DNA of 64,000 nt. Origin: Woeseiaceae bacterium. Lineage in GTDB: Bacteria; Pseudomonadota; Gammaproteobacteria; Steroidobacterales; Woeseiaceae. The stretch covers positions 3,350,881 through 3,414,880 of the forward strand of contig OZ245053.1 in assembly GCA_965224645.1 (NCBI GenBank), read 5' to 3'. The first letter of the stretch is position 1. The number at the start of each line of letters is the position of its first letter. The notes beneath the pieces were generated by a model. It did no database searches and had not been told where the DNA came from. It worked only from the letters and a program-made list of their open reading frames with translations. The position numbers and the translations under genes were made by a program. Below, in pieces: positions 25,230 through 64,000 of this stretch.

Positions 25230-26254
25230 ATGGGTCAACGCAACACAAGATACTCAGATGCATACAACAGGAGATCTTGTAATGGCGAGACTAGGAAGGC
25301 CTGGTCTAACTGATGACCAGAAAGCTGAGCTTTGGGAACGCTGGCACAATGGCGAGGGTTACAGTGATATCGGACGAGCGATCGGCAAGTTCCCAGCGTC
25401 AGTCTTTGGGGTACTCAGGCTGTTCGGCGGATACGAGCCAGCGGCCCGAACCCGTTCAACCTCGCACCTCTCGCTCGCAGAGCGCGAGGAGATATCTCGA
25501 GGCCTAAGTGCCGGATACTCGATGAGAGAAATCGCTCAACAACTTAGGCGCTCGCCGTCGACGATCAGCCGCGAGATTGCGCGCAATGGAGGCTCTCGGC
25601 GGTACCGAGCGAACATCGCCGACGAGAAGGCTTGGGACCGCGCCCGGCGACCAAAGCTATGCCATCTAGCGCTGAACGGCTTCCTGCGGCGTATAGTCTC
25701 TTTGAAGCTGGCACAAGACTGGTCTCCAGAGCAGATCGCCGGCTGGCTCAAGCGCGGCTATCCTGATGACGAGACGATGCATGTGTCGTACGAAACGATC
25801 TACAAGAGCCTGTTCGTTCAGTCACGTGGCGTGCTGAAAAAGGAGCTCCAGAAGCATTTGAGGACCAAGCGACCGTTCCGACAGTCAAAGAAGCACAATA
25901 ACCGAGGTGCTCGTCGCGGTCAGATCATCGATGGTGTGCCGATCAGCGAACGGCCGGCGAGCATCGAGGATCGCGCAGTTCCCGGGCACTGGGAAGGCGA
26001 CCTTATAGCGGGGTCCGGCAACACCCACATCGCTACGCTTGTCGAACGGCAGTCGAGGTTCACGATGCTGGTGAAAGTAGATGGCAAGGACACCAAGACT
26101 GTCGTGGCCGCGCTATCTCGGCAAGTAAAGAAGCTGCCCAGTCAACTCCGCCAATCACTGACCTGGGATCGAGGAATGGAACTCGCCAACCATAAAGACT
26201 TCACGCTAGCGACCGACCTGCAGGTCTATTTTTGCGATCCTCAGAGTCCTTGGC
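25230..26254 (+). mobile_element. IS30-family element, 3'-truncated by IS21 insertion
   Basis: It starts with TGTAGATTCAATGGGTCAACGCAACAC, nearly identical to the IS30 left inverted repeat as I remember it. The transposase reading frame is broken at 26254, where the IS21 terminal repeat begins. No IS30 continuation follows the IS21 right end. Confidence 0.75.
25282..26254 (+). pseudogene. IS30-family transposase, C-terminally truncated
   Basis: MARLGRPGLTDDQKAELWERW..., then RSPSTISREIARN (HTH) and GHWEGDLI. The sequence ends at VYFCDPQSPW, where IS30 transposases normally continue. The last 7 codons of track ORF 25258..26277 are IS21 terminal-repeat sequence. Confidence 0.8.
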
Positions 26255-26359
26255 TGTTGATTTGCATCCAAAGTTGAGCCACTAAAGCGGATATTTGCAT
26301 CTAAAAATGACCCACGTGTAACCCTTCCCCTGCCGATGGACGGCGGGAGAGATTAAGGA

Positions 26360-27886
26360 GTGATAGACGTGGATTTATTGAGCGTAATTCGACGCTGGCA
26401 CGGCCGTGACAAGCTGTCGATACGAGAGATTGCGAGAAGAACGGGGCTGTCCCGCAACACCATCAGGAAGTACCTCGCCAACGGCGAGGTGACACCGAAG
26501 TACCCGGCGCGGAAGAGCGTCAGCAAGCGGGATCCGTACGCGGAGACCCTAGCGAGCTGGCTTAAGCGTGAGTCCAAGCGCAACAGGAAGCGCCGCCGTA
26601 ACCTGAAGCAGCTGCACCGGGATCTTGTGGCGCTGGGCTTTGACGGCTCCTACGACCGGGTCGCCGCCTTTGCCCGCGACCGGCGGCAACGCGAGCGCGA
26701 GCAAGCCAACCGGGCCAGTCGTGGCGCTTACGTGCCGCTGGCCTTCGAGCCGGGCGAGGCCTTTCAGTTCGACTGGAGCGAGGACTGGCTTCGCATCGGC
26801 AAGAAGAAGATTAAGCTGCAGATCGCCCACTTCAAGCTCTGCCACAGCAGGGCTTTCTTTCTGCGGGCCTACCTTACGCAGACGCACGAGATGCTGTTCG
26901 ATGCCCACAACCACGCGTTCCGCGTGTTGGGCGGCATTCCCGAGCGCGGCATCTACGACAACATGAAGACGGCGGTCGACAAGGTAGGCCGCGGCAAGAA
27001 GCGCCTAGTGAACGCGCGCTTCCGGGCCATGGTGAGCCACTACCTGTTCGAGTCGGAGTTCTGTAACCCGGCCGCCGGCTGGGAGAAGGGCCAGGTGGAG
27101 AAGAACGTCAGAGATGCTCGCCACCGCCTGCTGCAGGATGCTCCGGACTTTGCCGACCTTGCTGAGTGCAACGCCTGGCTGGAAGAGCGTTGCGTAGCGT
27201 TATGGTCAGAGACAGCCCACCCGGAACAGGGCAACCGCATGGTCGCCGAGGTCTACGAGGACGAACACAGCGCCCTGATGGCGATGCCGCCGGCCTTTGA
27301 CGGCTTTGTCGAGTGCAACAAGCGTGTCTCGCCGACCTGCCTCGTGGTGTTCGAGCGTAATCGCTACAGCGTGCCGGCGGCGTTCGCCAACCGGGTCGTT
27401 AGCCTGCGAGCCTATGCCAGCAAGATCGTGCTGGTCGCCGAGGCCGAGGTCATTGCCGAGCACGAGCGGGTCTTTAACCGCGACCACAACAGCAAGGGCA
27501 CCACGGTCTACGACTGGCGCCATTATCTGGCTGTCGTACAACGCAAGCCCGGAGCCCTGAGGAACGGCGCGCCGTTCGCCGAGTTGCCGAAGAGCTTCAA
27601 GCGCCTGCAGGCAGTGCTGATGAAGCGCGAAGGTGGCGATCGCGAGATGGCCGATATCCTGGCACTGGTGCTGCATCACGATGAGAAGCTCGTGGAGAAG
27701 GCGGTACGCGAGGCCATCCAGAGCGATGTCGTCTCCAAGACGCACATCATCAACCGGCTGAGCCGCTTACTCGATGCGCCGCCACCGGCGGCGCTTGAGC
27801 CACCGCCGGCACTCACCCTACGGGAAGATCCCGTTGCCAACACCGAGCGCTACGACAGCCTTAGGGGGATGAGCCATGTCTGCTGA
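26360..27886 (+). CDS. istA: IS21-family transposase IstA
   Basis: 508 aa with an N-terminal HTH ([21 protein letters not shown]) and an rve/DDE core. GTG start after AAGGAG. It overlaps istB by 11 nt. Confidence 0.9.
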
Positions 27887-28649
27887 AGCCGTTGTCACCA
27901 CGCTCAAGTCGATGAAGCTGCACGGCATGGCGAGCGCCGTGGCAGAGCTTGCCGAGCAGGGATCCCCTGCGTTCAAGCAGTCCGGCGAGCTCCTCGACAA
28001 GCTCATCAAGGCCGAGGTCGCCGAGCGTGAAGTGCGTTCCATCAACTACCAGATGAAGATCGCTAAGTTCCCGGCCCATCGGGACCTTGCAGGGTTCGAG
28101 TTCAAGGAAAGCACCGTCTCAGAAGGCCAGATCAAGGCGCTACATCGCTGCGAGTTCCTCGACGACACCGAGAACATCGTCCTGGTTGGCGGCCCCGGCA
28201 CTGGCAAGACGCACATCGCAACAGCGATCGGCGTCCAGGCCATCATCCATCACCACCGGCGAGTACGGTTCCTGTCGACCATCGAGCTGGTCAATGCCCT
28301 CGAGCAGGAGAAGCTCAACGGCAAGCAAGGCAGGCTCGCCAACCGCATGACGCACGTCGATCTTGTCATCCTCGATGAGCTCGGCTACCTGCCGTTCAGT
28401 CAGACAGGCGGCGCCTTGCTGTTCCACTTCCTCTCAAAGCTTTACGAGAAGACCAGCCTGGTCATCACCACCAACCTGAGCTTCGCGGAATGGCCAACGG
28501 TCTTTGGTGATGCCAAGCTGACGACTGCCTTGCTTGACCGACTGTCGCACCACTGCCACATCCTAGAGACCGGTAACGACAGTTACCGACTCAAGAACTC
28601 AACCAGCAATCAGAAGGAGACAAAAGCTAAGAAAAAGGGCAAAACCTGA
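27876..28649 (+). CDS. istB: IS21-family helper ATPase IstB
   Basis: 257 aa with Walker [10 protein letters not shown] and Walker [10 protein letters not shown] (AAA+ IstB/DnaC-like). Confidence 0.9.
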
Positions 28650-28984
28650 GCCATAATCAGGCCATCCGTGTGGGTCAATTTTCAGTGCAAATCCCGGGTC
28701 AATATTGGGTGCAAATCAACAGGCAGCCATTGATCTTCTACCTGCTTTGGAATGTCGTTGCCCCGAATTCTTTCGGGCTGGACAATCTGGGACTCTTTGA
28801 ATCAGTGGCAGTTTACGCGCTGATACGCGTCATCATCGATCCACCAAAGCTGCAAATTTCAATAGAGTGACAACGTGTGGAATCTCCGACCAGGGAACCG
28901 TGCAGATGACCATGCGTAGTTTTCAATAGGTGGATGCGTGCGCTAGCGTGAAATTCGGCGAAGTGCACCAATTCTGTTCTAGAT

Positions 28985-29014
28985 TGTTGATTTTCACCCA
29001 ATGTTGACCGGGGG
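28985..29014 (+). repeat. Solo, decayed IS21 right-end terminal repeat
   Basis: TGTTGATTTTCACCCAATGTTGACCGGGGG differs at about 4 of 30 positions from the reverse complement of the IS21 right end (TGTTGATTTGCACCCAATATTGACCCGGGA). Similarity fades after about 45 nt. Confidence 0.6.
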
Positions 29015-29157
29015 CGTGCAGGGCGCAGGAAACACTATGATCCGATGCTTCGAGCATTCCGAGCTTCAAGTACTATGAGAACTAGTCACCGATGCCCGTT
29101 CTTCGAAAACTTGTTTAGTGGACGATATGAAAGGGGCTAAAGATTGGAGAGGGAAAA

Positions 29158-29427
29158 GTGAACAAGAAATATGAAACGGAACGTGCGCGCCTGATCGAAA
29201 TATTGCGAGACGAATTTATTTTGTCTCGAGTCCAAGGTGGGTCTATACCTTGCGGACCAGATGACGTCGGACAATGCGAAATGTTCGACCAATCATGCCC
29301 AGCTGGAGAGGTGGAGTGTGGTAGCGGAAGCGCCGATTGCGTGATCACACGACCGATCGATGGGGGGACTGAAACAACACAAGGAATATGCTGCGTGGAG
29401 GGTTTCACTGCGCCAGAGGGTTGCTGA
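29158..29427 (+). CDS. Double-glycine-leader precursor peptide with an acidic 61-aa, 8-Cys core
   Basis: GGAGAGGG lies a few nt upstream of the GTG start. The leader VNKKYETERARLIEILRDEFILSRVQGG ends in GG, with V at -4 and L at -7. The core is SIPCGPDDVGQCEMFDQSCPAGEVECGSGSADCVITRPIDGGTETTQGICCVEGFTAPEGC. A C39-peptidase ABC exporter lies 1.6 kb downstream on the same strand. Confidence 0.7.
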   Translation: MNKKYETERARLIEILRDEFILSRVQGGSIPCGPDDVGQCEMFDQSCPAGEVECGSGSADCVITRPIDGGTETTQGICCVEGFTAPEGC

Positions 29428-29450
29428 TCTTAATTCAAAGTTGAGATGAT

Positions 29451-30479
29451 GTGGACCCTTTCGTTCCCGATGTGACTATTGATCTTCCCGCCGATTCGTT
29501 TCAAGAATCGGATGCATCGATATCACAAATCATAGGTGCTCTCGCGAGGCCGATTTCATTTGACACGCGCCGAAAAGTGTATTCTTTTCTTTCAAGGCAC
29601 CACGCCGACGACCCGATTGTCAACCTAGCATTACCGACAAGTACCTCGTATCCATGTTATGACCGCGAGATAGACGCCTACCTCAAAAGAGTGATTCGAA
29701 GTAACCGCTCGCGCAATGCCAGAGCGCATGCAACGTACTTAATGGCGGGCAACTACCTCGAATTGAGCGACTGTTTACTAATGGCCAACAATCTCGGCTC
29801 CAGTCCAGTCGAATTTGTTAAAGCTACAGTGCCTTCAAAGCAATTCGAAATTACAGGGCACATTGTAATGGAATCGTTAAGCTATTGGGCCCAAGTGGGT
29901 GCTACCAAACTGCGATCTGAGGCACGTAGGCTCGCGGAAGTATGCGTAAAAGAGTACCCGCGGTGTAAGAGATACAACTTGCGAAGCAATTACCCAGCAG
30001 ATCCAGATCGCTTGGAAACTCAGCTCCTGGGGACTGTAGCCTTGGAGGCAAGGTCTATTTTGGAGCGATTGGAGTCGTTTTCTGTTGGAGCTAGATTGAC
30101 CAAAATACTTGGATTGCTTGATGGCGAATTACAGATTGAATCAAAATTAGCTTCTCAATCGAACACCGTCATTGAATTTTGGCGAAGCGACTGCGGGCCT
30201 TGCACAAAGAAATTGCAAGATCTAGAAGATCTCGTGGTCAACTATGGCAATTTCGACGCTGAGATCAAAGCATTGAACATCGACCCAACAAGTGAACACT
30301 GGCGAAAATCGATGGCCAAACATGCACCGTCGATTAATGGAAGTTACTTTGGCGATAATGCGAGATTGATTCGGCTTTGGGGCATAACGGCGGTGCCGAA
30401 GATTGTCGTTTTAAAGCCCGACCTCACGATTCTTGCGATAGGTGCGCTTACGATTGATCAAATCAAACTCCTATCGTAG
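29451..30479 (+). CDS. Two-domain protein: unknown helical N-domain plus C-terminal TlpA/thioredoxin-like domain (CGPC)
   Basis: 342 aa. The C-terminal about 110 aa read NTVIEFWRSDCGPCTKKLQDLEDL...WGITAVPKIVVLKPD, a thioredoxin fold with a CxxC active site and cis-Pro region. No signal peptide is evident at the annotated GTG start. Confidence 0.7.
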   Translation: MDPFVPDVTIDLPADSFQESDASISQIIGALARPISFDTRRKVYSFLSRHHADDPIVNLALPTSTSYPCYDREIDAYLKRVIRSNRSRNARAHATYLMAGNYLELSDCLLMANNLGSSPVEFVKATVPSKQFEITGHIVMESLSYWAQVGATKLRSEARRLAEVCVKEYPRCKRYNLRSNYPADPDRLETQLLGTVALEARSILERLESFSVGARLTKILGLLDGELQIESKLASQSNTVIEFWRSDCGPCTKKLQDLEDLVVNYGNFDAEIKALNIDPTSEHWRKSMAKHAPSINGSYFGDNARLIRLWGITAVPKIVVLKPDLTILAIGALTIDQIKLLS

Positions 30480-30552
30480 TGGCAAGAGCCACGCAACATT
30501 CGTTATGACTAGTACTGCAATGGGCTGCCGCGAATTGTCGACCACATTTCAA

Positions 30553-31047
30553 ATGCATGACAAACCGACCTTCGATTTGGCGCCTCGGACAGCACCGTAT
30601 GTTGTCTTTTTCGTGCTCCTGTCTGGGTTCCTCTTTTCTTTCGGTGCCTCGAAGAGCATTAATGAAACATCTCGAATCGATCTCAAAACCATTGATAGCG
30701 GACCAAAGGCAGGCGAGCATCGTACCTTACGGGTATCCTATTTAGCCTGTTCTACACCGTCTATCAAAATCTGGTCTTCCGAGATTGATGAAATGTATAT
30801 TGAGGTTGATCAATGGCGAGCTCGAATTATCTTTTACGACCTAAAGTCCGCCAATGTGGTGAATGATGGACAGATTGAAGTAGATTTGGAATTGCTTATT
30901 GAGGGCCCGATTTCATCCGCCCAGGATTACCGACTGGCCGAGACCGGTACGTCGAGTGCCAGTCTTGTCTTCGCGTCCAAAGAAAAGTCGCTATTAAACA
31001 CCATCTTTGCAGGCTCGATGCGTTTCGCCAAACACAAAAACAAGTGA
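30553..31047 (+). CDS. Hypothetical single-pass membrane protein (start uncertain: 30442, 30505 or 30553)
   Basis: It has a hydrophobic helix APYVVFFVLLSGFLFSFGA followed by about 130 aa of beta-rich sequence with no motif I recognise. Its stop lies 1 nt before the exporter ATG, suggesting co-translation. Confidence 0.5.
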   Translation: MHDKPTFDLAPRTAPYVVFFVLLSGFLFSFGASKSINETSRIDLKTIDSGPKAGEHRTLRVSYLACSTPSIKIWSSEIDEMYIEVDQWRARIIFYDLKSANVVNDGQIEVDLELLIEGPISSAQDYRLAETGTSSASLVFASKEKSLLNTIFAGSMRFAKHKNK

Positions 31048-31048
31048 A

Positions 31049-33145
31049 ATGCCTTGGCAGTTTCGTAACATTGATTTCAAGAGACTACGCCTTTCAATTA
31101 GCGAGCAAAAAGGCGAATGCGGTCTTGCATGTTTAGAAATGATTGCAAACTATCACGGGCGCCGGATAGACAAACACGCTGCGAGAGCAAGCACCGATTG
31201 GAAGACACCATTATCTAGTTTTCTTGTGCTTGAAAAATGGGCGAGGAAGGCCGGTCTCGAACCAACCGCGTTGCGTTTCAGTGCTGGTGGTTTACGCTTT
31301 CTCCGTACGCCCTGCATTTTACATTGGTCTGGGGATCATTTTGTCGTCTTAAAGAAGGCGGGCCGATTTCAATCGACGATATACAATCCCAGCGGAAATA
31401 TACAAAGAGTAACTTCGTCAAGATTGGAGAGAATTTGCAGCGGGTTTGCAATGGAGTTCAGTTGCTGCATTGAATCGACGATCCCGGACGTAGTACGCCC
31501 GGCGAAGGTTCGCCTATTGGACCTTCTTCGGCAGACTGATGGAATCGGTTCAGCAATGTGGCAGACAACTGCTCTAGCATTACCGGTCCAAGTATGCGCG
31601 CTGCTGGCCCCTCTTTACCTGAAAATAGTGATCGATCGGGTCTTGCCCAACAAAGATACGGATCTGCTGTTTGTTGCTGCGATCGGCTTTGCAACAATTG
31701 CGGCGTTTCAAGTTATCACCTCAGTGTTTCGGACTTTGCTTATGCACGGGCTGAGCACTCAACTTAGTTATCGTCTTAATGCCGCTTTGTTTGGTCACGC
31801 ATTAAAGCTACCACTTGAATTTTTTCAGAAACGGCATCTGGGAGATATATTAAATCGGTTCGGGTCTCTTGAGCATGTAAAGGCATTTCTAACAGGAAAC
31901 TTTATTGTACTAGTGATCGATACAGTAATGTCCATTATCCTCATATGGTTCCTCTTCTATTACAGTGCGCAACTTGCATTTATTGTGGTTGCATTCATGA
32001 TCGCCGATGCTGGTGTACGTATGATGGTCTTCAGACCAATCCGACGAAGCACAGAGGAGTCTCTGGACGCAGCGGCGGTAGCAAGAACAAACATGATGGA
32101 GAGTATCCGCGCGATCAGTTGCATCAAGGTTTTCGGCCGTGAAACCGACCGCCATAACAGGTGGAAAGAGTTGAGTCACAAGCAGTATTCGTGCGATCTG
32201 CGCGTCACACAATTACAGACAATCACAAACGGCGCCAGGCATCTATTATCAAGTGTTGAGACCATTATTTTGGTGTTCGTCGGAGCCACGCTTACCATCG
32301 ATTCAACATTTTCAGCGGGCATGTTGTTGGCGTTCATTGCGTATAAGTCTCAGCTGACGTCCAGCGTGACTAGCGTCGTTGGAAAGATTGGGCAGTTCGC
32401 TTTTCTTCAGGTGCACCTGGCAAGGTTATCTGACATCTACTGCGCTCTTCCGGATCGAGCAGTCAACCATTCCCATCCCATTCAGGAAACCAATAAGCAG
32501 AGCCAATTGGATCTGTCGCAAGTTTCATACCGATATATTAATGGTGGCAATTGGGTCATACGGGACTTTTCAATGTCCGTGCGCAAAGGCGAAACCATAG
32601 CTTTGGTTGGCCCATCCGGTGCCGGAAAATCTACGATCATCGCAATCGCGCTCGGACTCATCCATCCGCAAGAAGGTCAAGTCTTGCTTGATGGTACGAG
32701 TCTATCAGACATTCCGCAGAGTACATTCCGAAAAACTGTCTCAGCTGTAAGTCAGGGAGATCCATTGCTAGTCGGGACTATCGCCGAAAATATCTCGTTC
32801 TTCGACAACCTTGTTGATCCGGAGATTGTTCGAACATGTGCGTCAGCTGCTGCGGTTCATGATGAAATCATGGCCTTACCAGATCAATACGATACACCGA
32901 TTAGTGATCTTGGAGACGGGTTATCTGGTGGACAGAAACAAAGAATATTGATCGCTCGAGCATTATATGCAAAACCGAAGATTCTGGTGTTTGATGAAGC
33001 GACCAACTCTGTAGATGCTGAAAATGAAATCCGTATCTTCAGTGAAATTTCAAATCTTGGTATTTCGGTTCTGTTTACTACTCATAGCGAGAGGTTATTG
33101 GCCTTCGCCGATCGGACCATAGTCATCCCATCAGTCGCAGCGTAG
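31049..33145 (+). CDS. Peptidase-containing ABC transporter (PCAT): C39 peptidase + 6-TM + ABC ATPase
   Basis: C39 catalytic Cys context QKGECGLACLEMIANYHG, with His in SGDHFVVL. The transmembrane domain is followed by Walker A GPSGAGKST, signature LSGGQKQR and Walker B ILVFDEAT. ATG 31049 is preferred over 31007. Confidence 0.9.
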   Translation: MPWQFRNIDFKRLRLSISEQKGECGLACLEMIANYHGRRIDKHAARASTDWKTPLSSFLVLEKWARKAGLEPTALRFSAGGLRFLRTPCILHWSGDHFVVLKKAGRFQSTIYNPSGNIQRVTSSRLERICSGFAMEFSCCIESTIPDVVRPAKVRLLDLLRQTDGIGSAMWQTTALALPVQVCALLAPLYLKIVIDRVLPNKDTDLLFVAAIGFATIAAFQVITSVFRTLLMHGLSTQLSYRLNAALFGHALKLPLEFFQKRHLGDILNRFGSLEHVKAFLTGNFIVLVIDTVMSIILIWFLFYYSAQLAFIVVAFMIADAGVRMMVFRPIRRSTEESLDAAAVARTNMMESIRAISCIKVFGRETDRHNRWKELSHKQYSCDLRVTQLQTITNGARHLLSSVETIILVFVGATLTIDSTFSAGMLLAFIAYKSQLTSSVTSVVGKIGQFAFLQVHLARLSDIYCALPDRAVNHSHPIQETNKQSQLDLSQVSYRYINGGNWVIRDFSMSVRKGETIALVGPSGAGKSTIIAIALGLIHPQEGQVLLDGTSLSDIPQSTFRKTVSAVSQGDPLLVGTIAENISFFDNLVDPEIVRTCASAAAVHDEIMALPDQYDTPISDLGDGLSGGQKQRILIARALYAKPKILVFDEATNSVDAENEIRIFSEISNLGISVLFTTHSERLLAFADRTIVIPSVAA

Positions 33146-33366
33146 AAGAAGTGGATCGGTTACACAGCTAAGTCGGCAGAGCAGAAGCACGATACGGCTA
33201 GAATGCCGAGTTTTCACCAGCGATGCTACACGAACAATGTTGGTCAAATGCGGTTTCTCGGAACGAAATGTTTGGATTCGTTTCCCGCTGAAGGATAAGA
33301 GGCAAGAAGTTATTAATGTAACTTCATTTCCAAACTAAATAGGTTGGATTAACAAGGGGTCTTGGT

Positions 33367-34293
33367 TTGCTAACACAAAAAACTGCACGCATTTTGCTCT
33401 CGAAATCAATTGCAATTGCAGTAGTTTTCGTAGTCATCGCTGGCCTGCTGCTAAGGAGCTTATCGGACAATGGAGACAGTCGAGAAAAATTCAAAAAAGT
33501 GCCGGCACTGTCAGCGCCAAATGACATCACGGCGCCGCAAACTGTGGAAGCAATAGAGCCGCCGTTGTCGGAGCGTGTTGCTGAATCAGAGGTTGAGAGA
33601 TTTCAAATTGAATTGCCCGAATATTCGGAGGGCTGTCTCCCAATTGAGGGGGCGATTACCGATGAGCGCCTACGTTTATATCAAGAGTTGCTGAGCGAAT
33701 CGATTCCAAAGGGATTTGAATACTCAGCGTACAGGAAAATGGAGACAAACGATCTTCGGGCATTCGTCATGCAGTCAGACTCGGCTGCCATGTACACTCT
33801 TGCCGCTAGATTATTGAACGAATCGGCGTGGTTAGAGGAAAGCCAAGAAGAAGTGGCGACACAAATGTCGGAGGCGTCTGAGTTAGCGTACGAAGCGGCA
33901 CTAAGGGGTAGGCTATTCGCTTTGTTCGGGTACGGCCGGGCTCTGACTCTCCAGGGGATTGGGCCAGTTAGCCTGGGATGGATCGATCAATCGACCTATG
34001 ATCAGCTTTCAGACGAAGATCGACGGGCACTGCGACCCGACAACATATACGGATATCTGGTATTTGATATTCTTCCCGAGCTTGTAATTCTAAATGACGG
34101 ACGTGCGTTACTAGACCGGCTAAATGACACCTCTGATCTCCAGATGGAGATTCGTCGAATGCTTAAACTCAGGTTCGAAAAAGACCTGTTGGCGCGGGAT
34201 CTCGCGTCACCAGTTGATAGGTATAGAGCACAAGACCCCGAAACCCAAAACACAATAGGTAATTATTGCGCGCACCCGAAATTGAAATCTTGA
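33367..34293 (+). CDS. Hypothetical membrane-anchored protein with helical-repeat ectodomain
   Basis: 308 aa with an N-terminal anchor IAIAVVFVVIAGLLL and an alpha-helical remainder (possibly Sel1/TPR-like, AAMYTLAARLL...AYEAALRG). It shares the AT-rich composition and strand of the exporter. It has no HlyD-like coiled-coil/lipoyl signature that I can see. Confidence 0.5.
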   Translation: MLTQKTARILLSKSIAIAVVFVVIAGLLLRSLSDNGDSREKFKKVPALSAPNDITAPQTVEAIEPPLSERVAESEVERFQIELPEYSEGCLPIEGAITDERLRLYQELLSESIPKGFEYSAYRKMETNDLRAFVMQSDSAAMYTLAARLLNESAWLEESQEEVATQMSEASELAYEAALRGRLFALFGYGRALTLQGIGPVSLGWIDQSTYDQLSDEDRRALRPDNIYGYLVFDILPELVILNDGRALLDRLNDTSDLQMEIRRMLKLRFEKDLLARDLASPVDRYRAQDPETQNTIGNYCAHPKLKS

Positions 34294-34544
34294 CTTGCCG
34301 AGCTTGCACGACGTGGGAAGCATTGAAAATGGCGTATCATCAGTGGCTTGGGGTACGAAAAACTAATCACTCCGCCCCGCGTCCCTGCTAGTTTTTCATC
34401 CGCGTTGATTGCATTGAGTTCTTGTCCGGTGCCTTTTAGCGTGATGGTATGATGTGGCTAGTGATTTACTTCTTTCCCGGTTTTCGAAGTTACGGGCTCT
34501 CCGCAACCTTGATCTTCTCCCAAAATTGGTGGTTAGCTGACACT

Positions 34545-34760
34545 GAGATGCCGACGCGGAAATCGCTGGGACAATGCGGTTGCTGATCCTTCTTTGGCGG
34601 CCTTCAAGAATGAACGATTCTAATAGCACAACTGCGAGAACCGCGATCTCGCGACGGACGATGTCTCAGATTATATCGAATCGTTCTACATCGAAAACGA
34701 AGGTATCTGCATCTTGGAGGTATTCGTCCGCAGGAGTTCGAGGCTACGGTTCCGAGTTTG
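34545..34760 (+). pseudogene. Remnant of an IS3-family OrfB 3' end (frameshifted)
   Basis: In shifting frames it reads RCRRGNRWDNAVADPSLAAFKNERF-stop, then DYIESFY, then RKRRYLHLGGIRPQEFEA. These correspond to the conserved GNCWDNAxAESFF and DYIExFYNxxRxHSxLGxxSPxxFE blocks. Confidence 0.55.
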
Positions 34761-34830
34761 CATTCGGGAATTTGGGTAAGAACGTCAGGCTACGCTATCC
34801 GAGCATCGATGCTAGTGTCAGAGCATGCTG

Positions 34831-35764
34831 TGTTGATTTGCACCCAATATTGACCCGGGATTTGCACTGAAAATTGACCCACACGGATGGCCTGATTATG
34901 GCTCAGGTTTTGCCCTTTTTCTTAGCTTTTGTCTCCTTCTGATTGCTGGTTGAGTTCTTGAGTCGGTAACTGTCGTTACCGGTCTCTAGGATGTGGCAGT
35001 GGTGCGACAGTCGGTCAAGCAAGGCAGTCGTCGGCTTGGCATCACCAAAGACCGTTGGCCATTCCGCGAAGCTCAGGTTGGTGGTGATGACCAGGCTGGT
35101 CTTCTCGTAAAGCTTTGAGAGGAAGTGGAACAGCAAGGCGCCGCCTGTCTGACTGAACGGCAGGTAGCCGAGCTCATCGAGGATGACAAGATCGACGTGC
35201 GTCATGCGGTTGGCGAGCCTGCCTTGCTTGCCGTTGAGCTTCTCCTGCTCGAGGGCATTGACCAGCTCGATGGTCGACAGGAACCGTACTCGCCGGTGGT
35301 GATGGATGATGGCCTGCTCACGCTCGCGTTGCCGCCAGTCGCGAGCAAAGGCCGCGACCCGACCGTAGGAGCCGTCAAAGCCCAGAGCAACAAGATCCCG
35401 GTGCAACTGCTTCAGGTTACGGCGGCGCTTCCTGTTGCGCTTCGACTCTCGCTTGAGCCGGCTCGCCAGCGTCTCCGCGTACGGATCCAGCTTGCTGACA
35501 CTCTTCCTGGCCGGGTACTTCGGTGTCACCTCGCCGTTGGCGAGGTACTTCCTGATGGTGTTGCGGGACAGCCCCGTTCTTCTCGCAATCTCTCGTATCG
35601 ACAGCTTGTCACGGCCGTGCCAGCGTCGAATTACGCTCAATAAATCCACGTCTATCACTCCTTAATCGCTCCTGCGGTCCATCAGCAGGAGGAAGGGTTA
35701 CGCGTGGGTCATTTTTAGATGCAAATATCCGCTTTAGTGGCCCAACTTTGGATGCAAATCAACA
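34831..35764 (-). mobile_element. Internally deleted IS21 derivative (934 bp) with both terminal repeats intact, inverted relative to the full copy
   Basis: It starts TGTTGATTTGCACCCAATATTGACCCGGG (the right-end repeat, reversed) and ends GGATGCAAATCAACA at 35764 (the left end, reversed). It is near-identical to 26255-28721 except for a roughly 1.53 kb internal deletion and scattered substitutions. Confidence 0.9.
34903..35658 (-). CDS. In-frame IstA(1-116)::IstB(C-terminal half) fusion ORF
   Basis: The first 116 aa equal the IstA N-terminus (HTH) with 4-5 substitutions. From [17 protein letters not shown] onward it equals the IstB C-terminal half. The junction lies at a shared Gln-Ala (EQA / VQA). 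Walker A is lost and Walker B is retained. Confidence 0.85.
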
Positions 35765-35845
35765 CAATAGCTCGCTGATGATTGCAGAACACTGCTTGCC
35801 TAGAATTGGCCACAACTAACTAGGCTCGATCGAGCACAAACTTCC

Positions 35846-36940
35846 TGTCCCTCCCATAAACTCGTCAGCCTTGATTTTTCTGGACTTTTTGCGATGAGCT
35901 ACTAGCTTTGGAGAATGAGCAAATGGCTATCGATTTTCTACAAGTACATTCTTTCAACCTTCAAAACGCATCGGGACTTGGCGTTTGAGAACCTGCTGCT
36001 TCGCCAGCAAGTCGCCGTTTATAAGCAAAGTACTTCTCGGCCCAAGCTGACTCCGGGAGATCGGTCGTTTTGGGCATTAGCATCGAGACTCTGGGCAGGC
36101 TGGCGAGACGTCGTACAAATTGTGAGCCCCGAAACGGTCGTACGATGGCATCGTGAGGGGTTTCGTCGACATTGGGCGCGCAAGTGCCGAAAGCAAGGCC
36201 GACCGCAGATAGATAAAAGGATCCGGTTGCTCATTCGGCAAATGTGCATGGCGAATCCGCTTTGGGGAGCACCCCGAATTCATGGGGAGCTCTTGAAGCT
36301 GGGCATCGAGGTGTCCGAGTCGGTGGTTTCCAAGTACATGATTCGACAGCCGAAGCCGCCATCTCAAGGTTGGCGCACTTTCCTCGACAATCATGCGAGG
36401 GACATCATCGCCACAGACTTCTTCCCCGTCCCGACGGCGACCTTTCGGGTGCTGTTCGTACTGGTAGTTCTCAGCCACGATCGGCGGAAGATTTTGCACA
36501 CGAACGTAACCGAGCACCCGAATGAAGAATGGACAGCCAGACAGATCATCGAGGCATTCGGAGTAGATAGCACGCCGAGATTTCTCGTTCGCGATCGCGA
36601 TCGGAAATTCAGCGCATTCGTAAGTCGACGATTGGCGTCGGCGGGGTTGACGGAAGTTGTAACGGCGCCGGCCTCGCCCTGGCAGAATGCCTACGCGGAG
36701 CGTGTCATTGGTACGATCGGGCGGGATTGTTTGGACCACATGATCATTCTGGGTGAGCAGCACCTGCGAAGAACGGTCAAGCGATATGCCAACTATTACA
36801 ACAATGTACGCACGCACCTGTCATTGGAAAAGAACTCGCCGAACGGGCGGCTCATTCATTTCCCGAAGCAGGGCAGTATTCGCTCGCGCGAGCATTGTGG
36901 CGGATTACATCACGAGTACTTCCGGCAGGCCGCGTAGACA
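35846..36940 (+). mobile_element. IS481-like element copy 1 (left IR present, right IR missing)
   Basis: The left end TGTCCCTCCCATAAACTC is homologous to the left end of copy 2 at 59598. Sequence diverges from the other copies immediately after the transposase stop, so no right inverted repeat is present. Confidence 0.65.
35915..36937 (+). CDS. DDE transposase, integrase-core (rve) type, IS481-like
   Basis: 340 aa. It contains PLWGAPRIHGELLKLG (HTH), DIIATDFF, LVRDRDRKF, SPWQNAYAERVIGT and YYNNVRTHLSL. It is roughly three-quarters identical, by eye, to ORF 59668..60690. Confidence 0.85.
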   Translation: MSKWLSIFYKYILSTFKTHRDLAFENLLLRQQVAVYKQSTSRPKLTPGDRSFWALASRLWAGWRDVVQIVSPETVVRWHREGFRRHWARKCRKQGRPQIDKRIRLLIRQMCMANPLWGAPRIHGELLKLGIEVSESVVSKYMIRQPKPPSQGWRTFLDNHARDIIATDFFPVPTATFRVLFVLVVLSHDRRKILHTNVTEHPNEEWTARQIIEAFGVDSTPRFLVRDRDRKFSAFVSRRLASAGLTEVVTAPASPWQNAYAERVIGTIGRDCLDHMIILGEQHLRRTVKRYANYYNNVRTHLSLEKNSPNGRLIHFPKQGSIRSREHCGGLHHEYFRQAA

Positions 36941-37000: not shown

Positions 37001-37354
37001 ATGACTTGGGAAGTGGAGTTCGAGGGCGAGTTTGAGGCTGAGTTCGACGAATTCACAGACCCGGTTAAGACAGAGCTTTTGGCAAGGGCGAAAGTCTTGG
37101 CGCAGTTTGGGCCGATGCTTGGCAGACCCAATGTCGATACTCTGAATGGTTCGGAGCATGCGAACATGAAGGAGCTTCGGTTCACTGCGGATGGTGGCGT
37201 TTGGCGGGTCGCATTTGCATTCGATCCTGAGCGTAAAGCCATTCTGCTTTGCGGTGGGGATAAGGAGGGTAAGGATCAGAAGCGGTTCTACAAGGACCTG
37301 ATCCGTCTCGCCGACGGGCGTTTCAAGAGTCACCTGGAACGCCTAAAGAAATAG
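37001..37354 (+). CDS. RelE/ParE-superfamily toxin, Gp49/DUF891 (HigB-like) type
   Basis: 117 aa. LRFTADGGVWRVAFAFDPERKAILLCGGDKEGKDQKRFYKDLIRLADGRF is typical of Gp49-like addiction-module killers. An HTH antitoxin ORF follows 12 nt downstream. Confidence 0.75.
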   Translation: MTWEVEFEGEFEAEFDEFTDPVKTELLARAKVLAQFGPMLGRPNVDTLNGSEHANMKELRFTADGGVWRVAFAFDPERKAILLCGGDKEGKDQKRFYKDLIRLADGRFKSHLERLKK

Positions 37355-37366
37355 AGAGGTATTGTT

Positions 37367-37702
37367 ATGGGAACTTCACTACAGCAGAAGATTGAGCAAC
37401 TGCCACCGAAGCAGAAGGCAGAGGTTGAAGCTCGCGCCGATGAGTTGATTCTCGAGGAGCTGTCATTGCGTGCCCTCAGGAAGGGGCTCAAGCGAACACA
37501 AGTTGAAGTCGCGAAAGCGTTGGGGACTGGTCAGGACACGGTGTCTCGCCTGGAGAGTCGCTGCAATATGATGGTGTCGACGCTTGATCGGTACGTCAAG
37601 GCGATTGGTGGTGAAGTTTCTATTGTCGCCGAGTTCCCAGATCGACCACCGGTCAAGTTGACGTTTGAAGGCATGTCAAAGGATCTCGAAACAGCAAAAT
37701 AG
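37367..37702 (+). CDS. XRE-family HTH antitoxin (HigA-like)
   Basis: 111 aa with LRKGLKRTQVEVAKALGTGQDTVSRLES (HTH_3). Toxin-first order is typical of higBA modules. Confidence 0.75.
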   Translation: MGTSLQQKIEQLPPKQKAEVEARADELILEELSLRALRKGLKRTQVEVAKALGTGQDTVSRLESRCNMMVSTLDRYVKAIGGEVSIVAEFPDRPPVKLTFEGMSKDLETAK

Positions 37703-37916: not shown

Positions 37917-38960
37917 CTAGCGTAGAGAAATCGTAGAGTTGTTCTCTACGATTTCCAGCTCCCGCTCGATTCGAGACGCCGCATCCGACAAATGCTCCGG
38001 TGCCAAGTGCGCATACCGAAGTACCATCTCGTACGACTTCCAACCACCTAACTCCATGAGCTCCTGCAAACCGGTGCCGGCCATCACATGCCAGCTTGCC
38101 CAGGTGTGCCTAAGATCGTGGAACCGAAACTTCTCGATCCCGGCACGTAAGAGCGCCCGTTTCCAGGCAGAGCCCACCGCTTCCATGCGTCTCCCCTGAT
38201 ACGTGAAACACCATTGTTCGTGTTGGCCGTAAGTGGCTTTCAACGCCAGTAGTGCATCCCGGTTCAGGGGAATGCCGCGGCTGTCTCCGGTCTTGGTGGT
38301 GCCCGCATCCAGCCAGGCCACACGCCGATCGAAGTCGACACGACTCCATTCCATCTGCAGGATTTCTCGCATCCTGCAGCCGGTCGCCAGGGCAAATCGC
38401 ACCACCGGTACGAGGTGCCCGGGCAGTTCCTCCAGCAGTCGATCCGCTTCCTCTTTCTTGAGAAAACGGACGCGACGTTTGGGTTCTTTGAGCATGCGTA
38501 TCTTGGGGATACGCGTGACCCATTCCCACTCGTCGCGCGCCATGTGGAGAATACGCCGGACGATCTCGAGAGCGCGGTTGACGGTGGCGTTCTTGACACC
38601 ATCCACCTTCTTTCGATCCTGGATGAACGGCCTCAGGACATTCATATTGATGTCCTTCAGCCGGCATCCACGAAGATACGGATCGAGCTTGGCTAGGTGA
38701 TCCTTGTCGTCTCTCAGACTTCGCTTCTCGGCGTTGTCTTCGAGATAACGCAGGACTGCCTGCTGCCAGTTGTGCTCGGCCGGTATCCCGGTCCGGGCCG
38801 CCTCCACGGCGTCCGCTTTGAGGCGTATCAGATACTCTTCAGCGTCCTTCAGGATCGTAAGTCGAGTGCTCTTGCATACTCGGCGTCCGTCCGGGAGGAC
38901 AACGTCGATCCACCAATACGGCGAATCTTTCCTTCTGTAGAGTCCTTTTTCTCGGGCCAT
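37917..38960 (-). CDS. Tyrosine-type site-specific integrase (phage/island integrase)
   Basis: 347 aa. The N-terminus MAREKGLYRRKDSPYWWIDV is typical. The catalytic residues are ATGCRMREIL (Arg), HDLRHTWAS (HxxR) and GGWKSYEMVLRYAHL (Tyr). It sits 45 nt from the tRNA-Arg fragment. Confidence 0.9.
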   Translation of the reverse strand: MAREKGLYRRKDSPYWWIDVVLPDGRRVCKSTRLTILKDAEEYLIRLKADAVEAARTGIPAEHNWQQAVLRYLEDNAEKRSLRDDKDHLAKLDPYLRGCRLKDINMNVLRPFIQDRKKVDGVKNATVNRALEIVRRILHMARDEWEWVTRIPKIRMLKEPKRRVRFLKKEEADRLLEELPGHLVPVVRFALATGCRMREILQMEWSRVDFDRRVAWLDAGTTKTGDSRGIPLNRDALLALKATYGQHEQWCFTYQGRRMEAVGSAWKRALLRAGIEKFRFHDLRHTWASWHVMAGTGLQELMELGGWKSYEMVLRYAHLAPEHLSDAASRIERELEIVENNSTISLR

Positions 38961-61192: not shown

Positions 61193-64000
61193 TCATTCGA
61201 AGTCGAGCTCGGCTCCGATGCGGATGTAACGGCCCATGATATTCGGACCGGCCCACGACGGGTTGAATCCGTATAGGCCGTAGGCCGCCGAAGGGTCGAA
61301 CTCGGGATCGATGTCGAACACGTTCAGGATGTCTGCAAACACCCGGATGTTGTCGTTCCACTGGTGCGAGACGACCAGGTCGACGTTTAGCTGATCCTCG
61401 GAGTTACACACCGACGGCGTTCCATCGACATACGGTATCGTCGAGGCAAAGTTGCTCGCATTACCCTCACAGTCGCCGGCGACGCCGCCAAAGTCGATCG
61501 AGGCAGTGTCCAGGCCGCTGGTGTAGTACAGCGTCAGTGACGCCATGGTCTTGTCGGTAAACTGGAACGTGTTCTGCCAGCTGCCGCGTATTTCCGGCGC
61601 ACCCGAGCAGGACGTGACGTTGCACGGACTCAGCGTGCCGTCGTACTTGAGCACCTGGCCGGCATCGGTCGTCAATTCGTACTTCTCAAGGAACGAAACG
61701 TCGAGCGATGTCGTCCAGTCCACGTTGCCGAGCTCGATGTCACTCAGGGTGACGTTGATATCGAGACCGGCCACTTCCTGCGAGTCCTGGTTCTGGAATG
61801 AAGACTCGATGAAGCCTAGTAGCGGCAACGCATTGGGAAACGCCGTGTCGATGTTGCCCGGGATGACCGTTATACCGGGAAGATTCACGACGCCGTTATT
61901 GGCGTAGTACTGAGTCTCCGCCTCCGTCGTGTTGGTAACGCCGGTGATCAGGCCATCCACCTCGACCTGCCAGTAGTCGAGCGTCACAGTAAGGTTGTCT
62001 GTCGCGTTCCAGATGATGCCGGCCGTGAAGGACTCCGATTCCTCGGGATCGAGGCCGGGCTCACCCGTATTAGTCAGGCCGAGGGAGTAACTGGTCGTCG
62101 CATAGGCATTGTTGCCATGAGCGTTACAGAAATCCGCAAAAGTTGCGCAGTCCACCTGGCGAGTGACGAAGCCCGTCGTTGGCAAGCCGAAGGCTTCATT
62201 GAAGCTCGGAATGCGGAAGCCTTGTGACCAGGTGCCTCGAAAGGCAAAGCTGTCGGTCGGCTTCAGCTTGAAGCCCACCTTAGGTGAGAAGTTGCTCTGA
62301 CCGGACGAGTAGTCGTCGTAACGGCCCGAGGCAATCAGATCGAGCATCTCGGCAACGGGCGCGTCAACTTCGAAGAACACTGATGACACGCTGCGACTAC
62401 CTGCGGTGCCGACGGCGTTAATTGAATAATAGCGCTCGTAAGGTGCGGAATTGTTGGCCGGGTTGGCGCTCGGCGCATCGATCGATTCCTCGCGATAGGA
62501 CGCACCGACCGCAACCTGCATCGAACCACCGGACAGCTCCATTAGTTCCTTGGCGATGTTGCCCTGGACCTGCCACAGCCGCGACGGAGAGGTGACGGTT
62601 TTGCTCGGAGAAATAAAATCCCAGATCTCCTGCGAATTGCCGGCGGGATCGATGAAGTCAAAGGTACCCTGCGCGGCAACGTCCATGATTCTCTGCGGGA
62701 TCAGGTAGTTGCTCGACGTGCGCGTCAGGCTGACCTCAGACTGCGTGAAGTTGGTCGTGTAATGCCAGTCGTCACCGAAGCTGCCATCGAGACCGAACGC
62801 GACGCGCTGTACGCGCGACGTCGTGTCCACAGCGCGACCATGGGGTGAGCGCAATTCGACTTGCGCGCGGAGACCCTGCGCCGCGTACGGATTGTTCGGG
62901 TTCAGTTGTCCGTTGCTTGCATCGCAGCCGGTGTTCTCGCCACTGAACGTGCCAATACCCGTCGAGCAAGTATAGACTGGAAGAAGAACCCGGTACTGGG
63001 CGAGGCCTGCCGGCCGTGGCGACGCGGGTGTGCCGCGAAAGCCCAGCGGCGTATAGGACGCAGCCGTATCGGTCCTGTAGAAGTTGGCCATGGCGTAGAA
63101 CTGGCTGGCCTCGCCGATGTTGGCCGTGTAACGAAGCGTGAGTCCGGTACGCTCGATTTCGGGCTGCAGCTGAAAGTAAGCCTTCCTGAAATCCACTTCG
63201 CAGTTGGTCGCCGGCGACGTGCCTGACTGCGCCGGCGTGACGGAGACTTCGGGCCACTCACGACATCCTGCGGCGGGATTTAGAAACTCGAACTGGCCCG
63301 CGCCCGAGGTGGCGCCGGCCTCGACAGGGCGGACCATCGTGACGCCGGGGACGCTGATGAAGCCATTGAAGGTCCCATCCTCGGCCGTGATGCCGTTCCA
63401 GTTGCCGTTGGTCAGGCAGCTGCCGGACGGACCGCAGATATTGCTCCAGTCGGCGGTACCGAACGGGCCGCCGCGTTCTCTAGAATTCAGGTTCTCCATG
63501 AGCTGGTATTCAGCGCTGATATAGAAGTTCTGCCCATCGACGGCGAGATCGCCATGGCCCCAGGTCACGTCAATGCGCTGTTCCGCACCGCCGCCGTGCT
63601 CCGAAAATCCGCCCGAACCTCCGAGGTGAAATCCCTGTACTTCCTTCTTGGTGATAACGTTGACGACTCCGGCAATCGCGTCGGCGCCGTAAGTCGATGA
63701 GGCCCCATCGCGCAACACTTCGATGCGGTCGACGATGGCACTGGGAATCGTGTTGAGGTCGACGAAGTTGCGCTGGCCATCGTCGGCCAGTGGATACGGA
63801 GCGAGACGCAGGCCGTCGGCCATCGACAATGTCGACTGTACCGTCAGGCCGCGCAGCGCCGGTGCGGTGGCACCGGTGGCGAAGTTAAAACCGACATTCC
63901 AGTTGTTCACGATCGTACCGGCGTTGTTGGCCGATGCGCGTTGCACCGCTTCCGAAATCGTATTCAGGCCGCGCTGTTCCATATACTCATCGGACATGAT
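61193..64000 (-). CDS. TonB-dependent outer-membrane receptor (N-terminus beyond the window end)
   Basis: The track ORF 61193..63997 begins inside the plug domain (NTIPSAIVDRIEVLRDGASSTYGADAIAGVVNVITKK), so the true start and signal peptide lie past 64000. A long beta-barrel region follows. Confidence 0.9.
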   Translation of the reverse strand: MMSDEYMEQRGLNTISEAVQRASANNAGTIVNNWNVGFNFATGATAPALRGLTVQSTLSMADGLRLAPYPLADDGQRNFVDLNTIPSAIVDRIEVLRDGASSTYGADAIAGVVNVITKKEVQGFHLGGSGGFSEHGGGAEQRIDVTWGHGDLAVDGQNFYISAEYQLMENLNSRERGGPFGTADWSNICGPSGSCLTNGNWNGITAEDGTFNGFISVPGVTMVRPVEAGATSGAGQFEFLNPAAGCREWPEVSVTPAQSGTSPATNCEVDFRKAYFQLQPEIERTGLTLRYTANIGEASQFYAMANFYRTDTAASYTPLGFRGTPASPRPAGLAQYRVLLPVYTCSTGIGTFSGENTGCDASNGQLNPNNPYAAQGLRAQVELRSPHGRAVDTTSRVQRVAFGLDGSFGDDWHYTTNFTQSEVSLTRTSSNYLIPQRIMDVAAQGTFDFIDPAGNSQEIWDFISPSKTVTSPSRLWQVQGNIAKELMELSGGSMQVAVGASYREESIDAPSANPANNSAPYERYYSINAVGTAGSRSVSSVFFEVDAPVAEMLDLIASGRYDDYSSGQSNFSPKVGFKLKPTDSFAFRGTWSQGFRIPSFNEAFGLPTTGFVTRQVDCATFADFCNAHGNNAYATTSYSLGLTNTGEPGLDPEESESFTAGIIWNATDNLTVTLDYWQVEVDGLITGVTNTTEAETQYYANNGVVNLPGITVIPGNIDTAFPNALPLLGFIESSFQNQDSQEVAGLDINVTLSDIELGNVDWTTSLDVSFLEKYELTTDAGQVLKYDGTLSPCNVTSCSGAPEIRGSWQNTFQFTDKTMASLTLYYTSGLDTASIDFGGVAGDCEGNASNFASTIPYVDGTPSVCNSEDQLNVDLVVSHQWNDNIRVFADILNVFDIDPEFDPSAAYGLYGFNPSWAGPNIMGRYIRIGAELDFE

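Follow-up and report, generated by a model that had tools for sequence, protein, structure and literature searches.

A PCAT cassette with a thioredoxin-fold partner and no HlyD gene, bracketed by inverted IS21 copies in a Woeseiaceae bacterium: a candidate locus for a cysteine-rich secreted peptide

Introduction

PCATs (peptidase-containing ABC transporters), in which a C39 peptidase is fused to a transmembrane domain (TMD) and a nucleotide-binding domain (NBD), are paired with a thiol-disulfide oxidoreductase in the Gram-positive sublancin (sunA-sunT-bdbA-sunS-bdbB) and pediocin (PedC/TIGR01295) operons. Bacteroidetocin (class IIf) loci of Gram-negative Bacteroidetes (gut Bacteroides) comprise a four-gene region that encodes a protein with five transmembrane (TM) segments, a Cys-containing peptide with a double-glycine (GG) leader, a thiol oxidoreductase and a PCAT (PMC6671954). 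This region is reported to yield toxin from E. coli, and deleting the gene for the TM protein, the peptide or the oxidoreductase attenuates activity, the PCAT gene not being among the deletions. Neither HlyD nor any other membrane fusion protein (MFP) is mentioned anywhere in that paper, whose authors do not settle whether the peptide passes the outer membrane or by what route (PMC6671954). Class II microcin systems use an MFP together with TolC, and some microcins are disulfide-bonded (PMC12219008). Here we analyse a 64,000-nucleotide stretch of the genome of a Woeseiaceae bacterium (contig OZ245053.1, positions 3,350,881 to 3,414,880; hereafter the window, whose own coordinates are used throughout), in which five genes at 29158..34293 bring together a PCAT, a thioredoxin-fold protein, a candidate precursor of a cysteine-rich peptide and two predicted single-pass membrane proteins.

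An earlier note on this DNA, made from the letters alone, could name no described family that combines these components. Bacteroidetocin loci are such a family: the TM protein, GG peptide, thiol oxidoreductase and PCAT all occur together in them (PMC6671954). Nothing here is categorically new: a PCAT-based cassette for a Cys-rich peptide, with a dedicated thioredoxin-fold partner and no MFP, is an already-known design. What is unusual is that the PCAT is of RaxB type and lacks an MFP, that the oxidoreductase has two domains and no export signal, and that the candidate cargo is anionic with 8 Cys. Our favoured reading, to which we give about an even chance in all its parts together, is that the locus is a cassette whose product is secreted, a ribosomal peptide rich in cysteine and of the class II microcin or bacteroidetocin type, and that the block carrying it is horizontally acquired DNA on a composite structure bracketed by copies of an IS21-family insertion sequence (IS).

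Results and discussion

The cassette and its PCAT

The five co-directional open reading frames (ORFs) described earlier between 29158 and 34293 are all present on the + strand, and none carries a frameshift or an internal stop. They encode a candidate precursor of 89 aa (29158..29427, GTG start), a thioredoxin-fold protein of 342 aa (29451..30479), a single-pass membrane protein of 164 aa (30553..31047, from the ATG at 30553, with alternative starts at 30442 and 30505), the PCAT of 698 aa (31049..33145, from the ATG at 31049) and an anchored helical protein of 308 aa (33367..34293, TTG start, with the Shine-Dalgarno (SD) sequence AAGGGG). The tight spacing reported for these genes holds for the 23 nt between the precursor and thioredoxin-fold genes, the 1 nt between the membrane ORF and the PCAT and the 221 nt between the PCAT and the 308-aa gene. 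However, the reported overlap between the thioredoxin-fold gene and the membrane ORF needs the GTG start at 30442; from 30553 there is instead a gap of 73 nt. A non-coding leader region of 436 nt (28722..29157, + strand) precedes the cassette; codon-usage log-odds, for which the three long cassette genes served as the training set, are negative there in all frames, as they are in every frame of the non-coding stretches of the block.

The block is also AT-richer than its surroundings, as had been remarked, with a GC content of 46-49% at 29-35 kb compared with 54-64% in the neighbouring kilobases. Likewise, the GC content at third codon positions (GC3) is 0.47-0.53 in the cassette genes compared with 0.63-0.82 in host and IS genes, and codon usage is alike across the cassette ORFs and unlike that of the flanks. 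Frames as long as those of 342, 308 and 698 codons did not occur once in 500 Markov simulations of the 6.1-kb block.

The transporter (31049..33145) matches Pfam PF03412 Peptidase_C39 (4.6e-19), PF00664 ABC_membrane (1.7e-38) and PF00005 ABC_tran (3.3e-31) and aligns over its full length with the structures of PCAT1, ComA and HlyB; it has the fusion of a C39 domain to a TMD and an NBD that defines the PCAT family. The C39 domain (~31103..31462) is accompanied by a six-helix TMD and by an NBD in which the Walker A, signature, Walker B and H-loop motifs are all intact. Both catalytic residues that the earlier note had read in the C39 domain, the Cys (GECGLAC) and the His (DHFVVL), are in place, and the Cys aligns with the Tyr of the inactive C39-like domain of HlyB. 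Among its best 120 relatives, the closest show 36-38% identity and are proteobacterial and of RaxB type where named; the score lies below every NCBIfam equivalog cutoff. Judged by sequence, the PCAT is a member of a proteobacterial RaxB/CvaB-like clade.

The candidate precursor and the thioredoxin-fold protein

The first gene of the cassette (29158..29427) is the candidate for the cargo. Its GTG start at 29158 is preceded at a distance of 4 nt by a strong SD sequence, GGAGAGGG, the best in the cassette, and its product opens with a putative leader of 28 aa, MNKKYETERARLIEILRDEFILSRVQGG (29158..29241), with Gly-Gly at residues 27-28. Double-glycine leaders were taken to end in GG, GA or GS, to be hydrophobic at positions -4, -7, -12 and -15 and in most cases to be acidic at -8; here these five positions hold, in the order just given, V, L, R, E and I. 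The core that would remain after cleavage has 61 aa and 6.1 kDa, with a pI of 4.05, a net charge of ~-10.6 and 8 Cys (P ~1e-3 for at least 8 Cys in 61 aa). Another GG site of the precursor, IDGG|TETT, was rejected as the point of cleavage on account of a Pro at -5 and the lack of a helical leader. The length of the 89-aa ORF is within chance, since ~11 such ORFs are expected per 6.1 kb, and the case for this gene therefore rests on its SD sequence, the GG motif, the Cys enrichment and the position ahead of the thioredoxin-fold and PCAT genes. The codon-usage score of the core is neutral. The precursor is absent from the public protein collection and is thus unannotated, and DNA-level scans of GTDB genomes and JGI metagenomes returned no relative of it. 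Pfam (E<=10), NCBIfam and PDB sequence searches gave no match for it either.

The thioredoxin fold proposed for the second gene product (29451..30479) is confirmed by Pfam, with which NCBIfam agrees: residues 235-327 match AhpC-TSA (PF00578, 28.9 bits) and Thioredoxin_8 (PF13905, 28.0 bits), both above cutoffs. The domain contains a CGPC motif (WRSDCGPC), and the Pro of '...TAVPKIVV' aligns with the conserved cis-Pro of its best PDB matches, 4k9z and 2lja, which are annotated only as 'putative thiol-disulfide oxidoreductase'. With the CxxC motif and the cis-Pro loop it has the hallmarks of the TlpA/ResA-like fold. This domain (residues ~230-340) follows an orphan N-terminal domain of ~230 aa, and the first 230 residues gave no match in Pfam (E<=10), NCBIfam or PDB sequence searches. 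No NCBIfam model, PedC_BrcD included, matches the protein above its cutoff. Its only hit among 5.8 billion proteins is itself, and the metagenome scan found no relative.

What this protein lacks is a visible route out of the cytoplasm. Its N-terminus is acidic without a hydrophobic segment, and no signal peptide, lipobox, TM helix or Tat (RR) motif was found; the single window flagged in a hydropathy scan, residues 317-336, lies within the thioredoxin domain. Nor can the ORF be extended upstream, because no start codon lies between the preceding stop and 29451. It therefore does not carry the signs of extracytoplasmic location that go with TlpA/ResA-like oxidoreductases. Because the N-terminus contains '...SISQIIGA|LARP', one speculative way to the periplasm is the PCAT itself, and this leads to an alternative in which something other than the 89-aa ORF, or something besides it, is the cargo: the PCAT would cleave and export the thioredoxin-like protein at this site, or the true cargo would be encoded elsewhere. 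TlpA-like domains normally act outside the cytoplasm, and export by the PCAT would explain the periplasmic delivery of one that has neither signal peptide nor TM helix. PCATs accept GG, GA and GS sites; the GA site here has Ile at -4 and -7, and the chance-compatible length and neutral core score of the 89-aa ORF leave room for another cargo. Yet at neither -12 nor -15 is the putative leader hydrophobic, an exported protein of ~310 aa would far exceed the typical size of PCAT substrates, and it is the 89-aa ORF that combines the best SD sequence with a GG site and a striking enrichment in Cys. We regard this alternative as very unlikely.

Absence of HlyD and TolC genes

The earlier note reported no HlyD-like gene in the cassette, and we extend this to the whole 64-kb window. 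A hidden Markov model (HMM) was built from six HlyD-family neighbours of related PCATs, and no window ORF of at least 50 aa matches it even at E<=10. None of these ORFs matches a query for TolC/OEP, whose gene need not be linked to the PCAT, and Pfam scans of 30 larger window ORFs revealed no HlyD or TolC. The canonical arrangement, with an HlyD-family MFP gene adjacent to the PCAT, is therefore not found here.

That HlyD is normally needed, as the earlier note held, agrees with how atypical its absence is for this PCAT clade. An HlyD-family gene is present in the neighbourhoods of all six closest relatives examined; in five it is directly upstream of the PCAT and in the sixth it lies on the other strand at a distance of ~4.6 kb, and the HlyD HMM matches 69 of 80 further loci from GTDB genomes. 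The 11 loci without a match comprise five from monoderms (Actinobacteria, Lachnospiraceae), two on truncated contigs, one (L075) with a 191-aa upstream ORF that has the look of a short MFP, and three from diderms with full flanks (L017, L029 and L053). These last amount to 3 of ~73 diderm loci (~4%). Therefore, an MFP-less locus is uncommon for the clade, though not unique to this window.

Two observations on these loci are recorded alongside. Directly upstream of the PCAT at L053, from a Rubrivivax metagenome-assembled genome (MAG), lies a small ORF (L053:7551-7838) with a textbook double-glycine leader, ...DPSLLKHVSGG|EDEG..., and therefore MFP-less PCAT loci with a plausible cargo occur in Betaproteobacteria. 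Secondly, small HlyD-like proteins of 191-279 aa are encoded directly upstream of the PCAT at L061:7332-7949, L072:7248-7952, L075:7338-7910 and L080:7134-7970, in Ca. Angelobacter and Pyrinomonadaceae (Acidobacteria) and a Chlamydiales MAG. They consist of a TM helix and a small, beta-rich domain that carries the C-terminal motif of HlyD, the long helical hairpin being apparently absent, and they score 41-59 bits against the standard HlyD HMM except for that of L075, which gives no match. These short proteins may be 'mini-MFPs'.

The two single-pass membrane proteins

The 164-aa membrane ORF (30553..31047) ends 1 nt before the start of the PCAT and sits in the slot that HlyD occupies in related PCAT loci. 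It has a predicted N-in TM helix at residues ~13-36, followed by a periplasmic tail of ~130 aa. The public gene call covers only 30793..31047, the C-terminal 84 aa. Codon-usage log-odds favour the frame in both parts, at +0.09 for the TM-containing half and +0.19 for the C-terminal half. An open frame of 201 codons arises somewhere in 9% of simulated regions; that the gap between the thioredoxin-fold gene and the PCAT should be open on the coding strand has P ~1e-3 by our own rough estimate, which assumes a stop frequency of ~0.04 per codon (from simulated ORF lengths), 190 codons and three frames. The 164-aa version is the more likely one, with a putative start. No match was found in Pfam (E<=10), NCBIfam or PDB, and an exhaustive HMMER search of 1.84 billion representatives returned only the protein itself.

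The 308-aa protein (33367..34293) is likewise predicted to be anchored by an N-in TM helix (residues ~5-35), which leads through an acidic, Pro-containing linker into an all-helical periplasmic domain; its pI is 4.75. It has no Pfam (E<=10), NCBIfam or PDB sequence match, and its only hit among 5.8 billion proteins is itself. The structural route failed because the single-pass proteins have no homologues: single-sequence AlphaFold2 models were unusable, with a predicted local distance difference test score (pLDDT) of 39.3 for the 308-aa and 39.1 for the 164-aa protein. At this low confidence the former is modelled as all-helical and the latter as mostly unstructured, and Foldseek against PDB gave no match with E<1 for either. 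We note that the architecture of the 308-aa protein resembles that of lipase-specific foldases (Lif/LipB). Its top Foldseek match is LipB, at a non-significant E of 1.1 and TM-score of 0.13 that we do not regard as evidence, and the Pfam lipase chaperone family does not match the protein.

The earlier note had raised the possibility that 33367..34293 is a diverged HlyD, and at the level of sequences and profiles no similarity to HlyD was found. The same comparisons were made for both single-pass ORFs. BLASTP against the HlyD neighbours gave only E>1 and hmmsearch no match, while hhalign against the six-member HlyD alignment gave probabilities of 0.8% and 0.4% in which only the TM helix was aligned. 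Against an alignment of the naturally short HlyD-like proteins, the 164-aa ORF reached an hhalign probability of 0.1%. The C-terminus of this ORF, GTSSASLVFASKEKSLLNTIF, resembles the HlyD C-terminal motif by eye, a resemblance without statistical support.

These results bear on a further idea of the earlier note, that one or both proteins are novel periplasmic adaptors which replace HlyD and connect the PCAT to an outer-membrane channel, and hence form part of a new secretion apparatus. Both have the topology of an MFP, in which a short N-in tail is followed by a single TM helix and then by a periplasmic domain, and the 164-aa ORF takes the MFP position at 1 nt from the PCAT start. Very small proteins do exist in that position, as the HlyD-like proteins of 191-279 aa at L061, L072, L075 and L080 demonstrate. 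However, neither ORF is similar to the full-length or the short HlyD profiles (hhalign <1%; no hmmsearch match at E<=10), a periplasmic domain of this size (~130 aa) would probably fall short of spanning the periplasm, no usable structure models were obtained and, with no homologues, there is no evidence of co-occurrence. We consider a novel adaptor highly improbable.

The four partner genes of the PCAT have no relative among the six-frame ORFs of 88 PCAT loci. Conserved synteny, which the earlier note had proposed as a check, was accordingly not found; formally this counts against its proposal that the neighbours belong with the exporter, but it is uninformative given that the four genes have no relatives at all.

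Insertion sequences around the cassette

Inverted IS21 ends coincide exactly with the two borders of the block, a feature absent from the earlier note. A complete IS21-family element (26322..28721, + strand) lies to its left, with istA at 26360..27886, istB at 27876..28649 and the istB-proximal end towards the cassette. IstA and IstB were identified by reading the ORFs by eye, and the ends of the element were taken from two inverted repeats, named I1 and I2. Sequences that share a 90% cluster with istB carry the JGI label 'DnaC'. To the right lies an internally deleted, inverted copy (34831..35696, - strand) in which a deletion of ~1.5 kb has left a fused ORF of 251 aa (34903..35658) that joins the IstA N-terminus in frame to the IstB C-terminus. 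Its inner 486 nt (34831-35316) are 100% identical to 28236..28721, which constitutes repeat I1, and repeat I2 extends over 387 nt at 93%. The block between the arms, 28722..34830, measures 6109 nt. Passenger DNA between two copies of one IS is the arrangement of a composite transposon, with putative mobility as a unit. No nucleotide match to the cassette was found in the plasmid collection.

Further IS remains adjoin this structure. At the right edge of the low-GC block, tblastn with the window's own IS3 OrfB identified an IS3-family transposase remnant (34570..34689, + strand) that corresponds to the OrfB C-terminus, at 40% identity over 40 aa (E 1.7e-5) with two in-frame stops. Moreover, both IS21 copies lie inside fragments of an IS30-like element (repeat I3). 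Immediately outside them, at 26230-26328 and 35691-35789, is an inverted repeat of 99 nt (88%) that represents the 3′ portion of a gene for an IS30-family transposase (25258-26277), truncated at '...DPQSPW' by the IS21 insertion. Because this IS30 repeat occurs outside both IS21 copies, two IS30::IS21 composites apparently flank the cassette.

Downstream of the block follow further transposases and three integrases. Among the former, a gene for a 340-aa rve_3/HTH_32 transposase occurs in two copies (35915-36937 and 59668-60690, both + strand), in direct orientation and 24 kb apart, and tyrosine recombinase/integrase genes lie between them at 37917-38960, 39259-40101 and 55808-56662. Two adjacent ORFs at 37001-37354 and 37367-37702 (+ strand), of 117 and 111 aa, have the look of a HigB/HigA-type toxin-antitoxin pair by eye; the second has an Xre-like helix-turn-helix (HTH), and the pair adjoins an integrase gene. 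From ~24 kb to 60 kb the window has the look of a mosaic genomic island.

A TonB-dependent receptor is encoded at 61193..63997 of the window and the host is therefore diderm. Its genome is closed at 3.7 Mb, and its lineage appears to be very sparsely sampled, with close relatives only for mobile-element proteins, from marine and gammaproteobacterial MAGs; a window integrase, for example, has marine gammaproteobacterial MAG sequences as cluster mates. By comparison, the host sarcosine oxidase alpha subunit, S9 peptidase, tetratricopeptide repeat protein and glycosyltransferase (6176-8971, 18250-20520, 52537-55655) are the sole members of their 90%-identity clusters among 15 billion proteins.

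Proposed mechanism and its standing

We propose the following model for the cassette as a peptide secretion locus. The C39 domain of the dedicated PCAT would recognise the double-glycine leader of the 89-aa precursor and cut it after Gly28, and the transporter would then export the anionic 61-aa, 8-Cys core across the inner membrane, driven by ATP. The TlpA-like thioredoxin protein, through its CGPC motif, would service the eight cysteines, either by oxidising or isomerising them beyond the cytoplasm or by holding them in the reduced state until export. Both of the N-in single-pass proteins may act as accessory factors, immunity factors or both. Since the cassette has neither an MFP nor an outer-membrane component, the peptide would be delivered to the periplasm, which may also be what happens with bacteroidetocin loci, or an MFP and TolC of the host would be borrowed from outside the window.

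This model draws on several features of the locus: the intact ATPase motifs and the catalytic Cys and His of the PCAT, the GG site with V at -4 and L at -7, the Cys-rich first gene with its strong SD sequence and the CGPC thioredoxin gene adjacent to it. The tight co-directional spacing, the coherent codon usage, the diderm host and the existence of MFP-less loci such as L053 are also in keeping with it. So is the bacteroidetocin layout, a functional analogue that has been validated by experiment in Gram-negative Bacteroidetes (PMC6671954). A more specific version, in which a RaxB/CvaB-type PCAT operates in a diderm host without HlyD, single-pass periplasmic proteins stand in its place, the thioredoxin enzyme is delivered by the PCAT or acts before export, and the product is an anionic peptide with four disulfides, strikes us as distinctly unlikely.

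Several observations weigh against the peptide cassette. Members of the RaxB/CvaB-like clade almost always adjoin an MFP, and IS elements cut into the low-GC block from either side. Within the C39 domain, the position upstream of the Cys that holds a Gln in 11 of 11 relatives is a Ser here, with a Gln two residues later, and the position of the Asp, again conserved in 11/11, is an Asn (NPS compared with DPA). The earlier expectation that this domain should be proteolytically active is thus sustained in part: retention of the Cys and His makes activity plausible, but it is not assured because Ser and Asn stand at the conserved Gln and Asp positions. Moreover, the leader matches the LSxxELxxIxGG consensus in part only, with R at -12 and no E at -8, and no consensus sigma-70 promoter was found; scanning the block for promoters, terminators and Rfam families gave nothing informative. 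Because every partner gene is a singleton, there is no evolutionary evidence of function or of functional linkage. The weakest link of the model is the thioredoxin-like protein, for which a periplasmic, disulfide-forming role is unexplained because it has no export signal.

Some of these points also feed a more trivial reading that the IS context allows, namely that the locus is broken. Because the block is IS-bracketed, loss of an MFP gene is a live alternative: the block would be what is left, truncated or in decay, of a canonical microcin locus for type I secretion that depended on an MFP. Insertion and recombination of IS3, IS21 or IS30 elements would have removed the HlyD-family gene and perhaps others, and the block would no longer work. 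The IS3 pseudogene at the end of the block and the inverted IS21 copies within IS30 fragments, one of them internally deleted, fit such a history, and in five sampled loci (L037, L043, L081, L083 and L087) the MFP gene is found downstream of the PCAT, which in our block is the side that has been cut. The loss of the conserved C39 Gln and Asp, the lack of a recognisable SD sequence in three of the five cassette genes and the orphan status of all partner genes point the same way. However, decay would have to be squared with five intact ORFs and perfect ABC motifs, and the usual upstream MFP slot (used in 5/6 closest relatives and in most of the 80 loci) is filled, without a scar, by a coding-like frame. 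Papain-like proteases accept Asn as the third member of the triad, which likewise counts against decay. Taken together, we judge a broken remnant to be unlikely, although it is a contender to be taken seriously.

If the peptide cassette is active, it would extend the design of a PCAT with a thiol oxidoreductase and no MFP from Bacteroidetes to a lineage whose PCATs are nearly always paired with HlyD, and would sharpen the question of how peptides of this kind get through the outer membrane. Its unusual cargo, anionic and 61 aa long with 8 Cys, would also join a class made up mainly of small toxins that are often cationic or hydrophobic. Should a RaxB/CvaB-type PCAT prove to work without HlyD, the locus would represent an MFP-independent module for peptide secretion and maturation outside Bacteroidetes. 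The value of the locus for generalisation or comparison is limited, because it is a one-off in which four of the five genes have no relatives.

Comparison with described systems

The cassette cannot be filed as a member of any of the systems with which we opened, because homology of the partner genes is undetectable or uncompared and because the membrane topology, the architecture of the oxidoreductase and the peptide differ. It nevertheless shares elements with each. As in the sublancin and pediocin operons, a PCAT is combined with a thioredoxin-fold accessory, without an MFP, for a GG-leader peptide that contains disulfides or, in the present case, would contain them. Those operons belong to monoderm hosts and their oxidoreductases are membrane-anchored or secreted, whereas the present host is diderm.

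By its PCAT the cassette is nearest to the class II microcin type I systems (MccV CvaA/CvaB/TolC; RaxA/RaxB/RaxC), at the 36-38% identity given above, and as in these a precursor of less than 10 kDa, here with a candidate GG leader, is encoded beside the exporter. The microcin systems, in contrast, have an HlyD-family MFP beside the PCAT and no dedicated thioredoxin-fold gene, host DsbAB being used, and their C39 domains retain the conserved Gln and Asp that are replaced here.

Bacteroidetocin loci resemble the cassette in architecture only, as no sequence relationship has been shown for any partner gene. The membrane proteins are two single-pass proteins here and one with five TM segments there, the leader has 28 aa rather than 15, and the mature peptide would have 61 aa, 8 Cys and a charge of ~-10.6 rather than 42 aa and 4 Cys. 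The oxidoreductase here adds an orphan N-terminal domain of ~230 aa and has no export signal, and the PCAT is of a proteobacterial, RaxB/CvaB-like type. In both cases the crossing of the outer membrane by the peptide is unexplained. Even so, the cassette and the bacteroidetocin loci have in common a Gram-negative host and a Cys peptide with a GG leader (a candidate one here), a thiol oxidoreductase, a PCAT and a membrane protein, encoded in one compact co-directional block for which no MFP or TolC gene is described.

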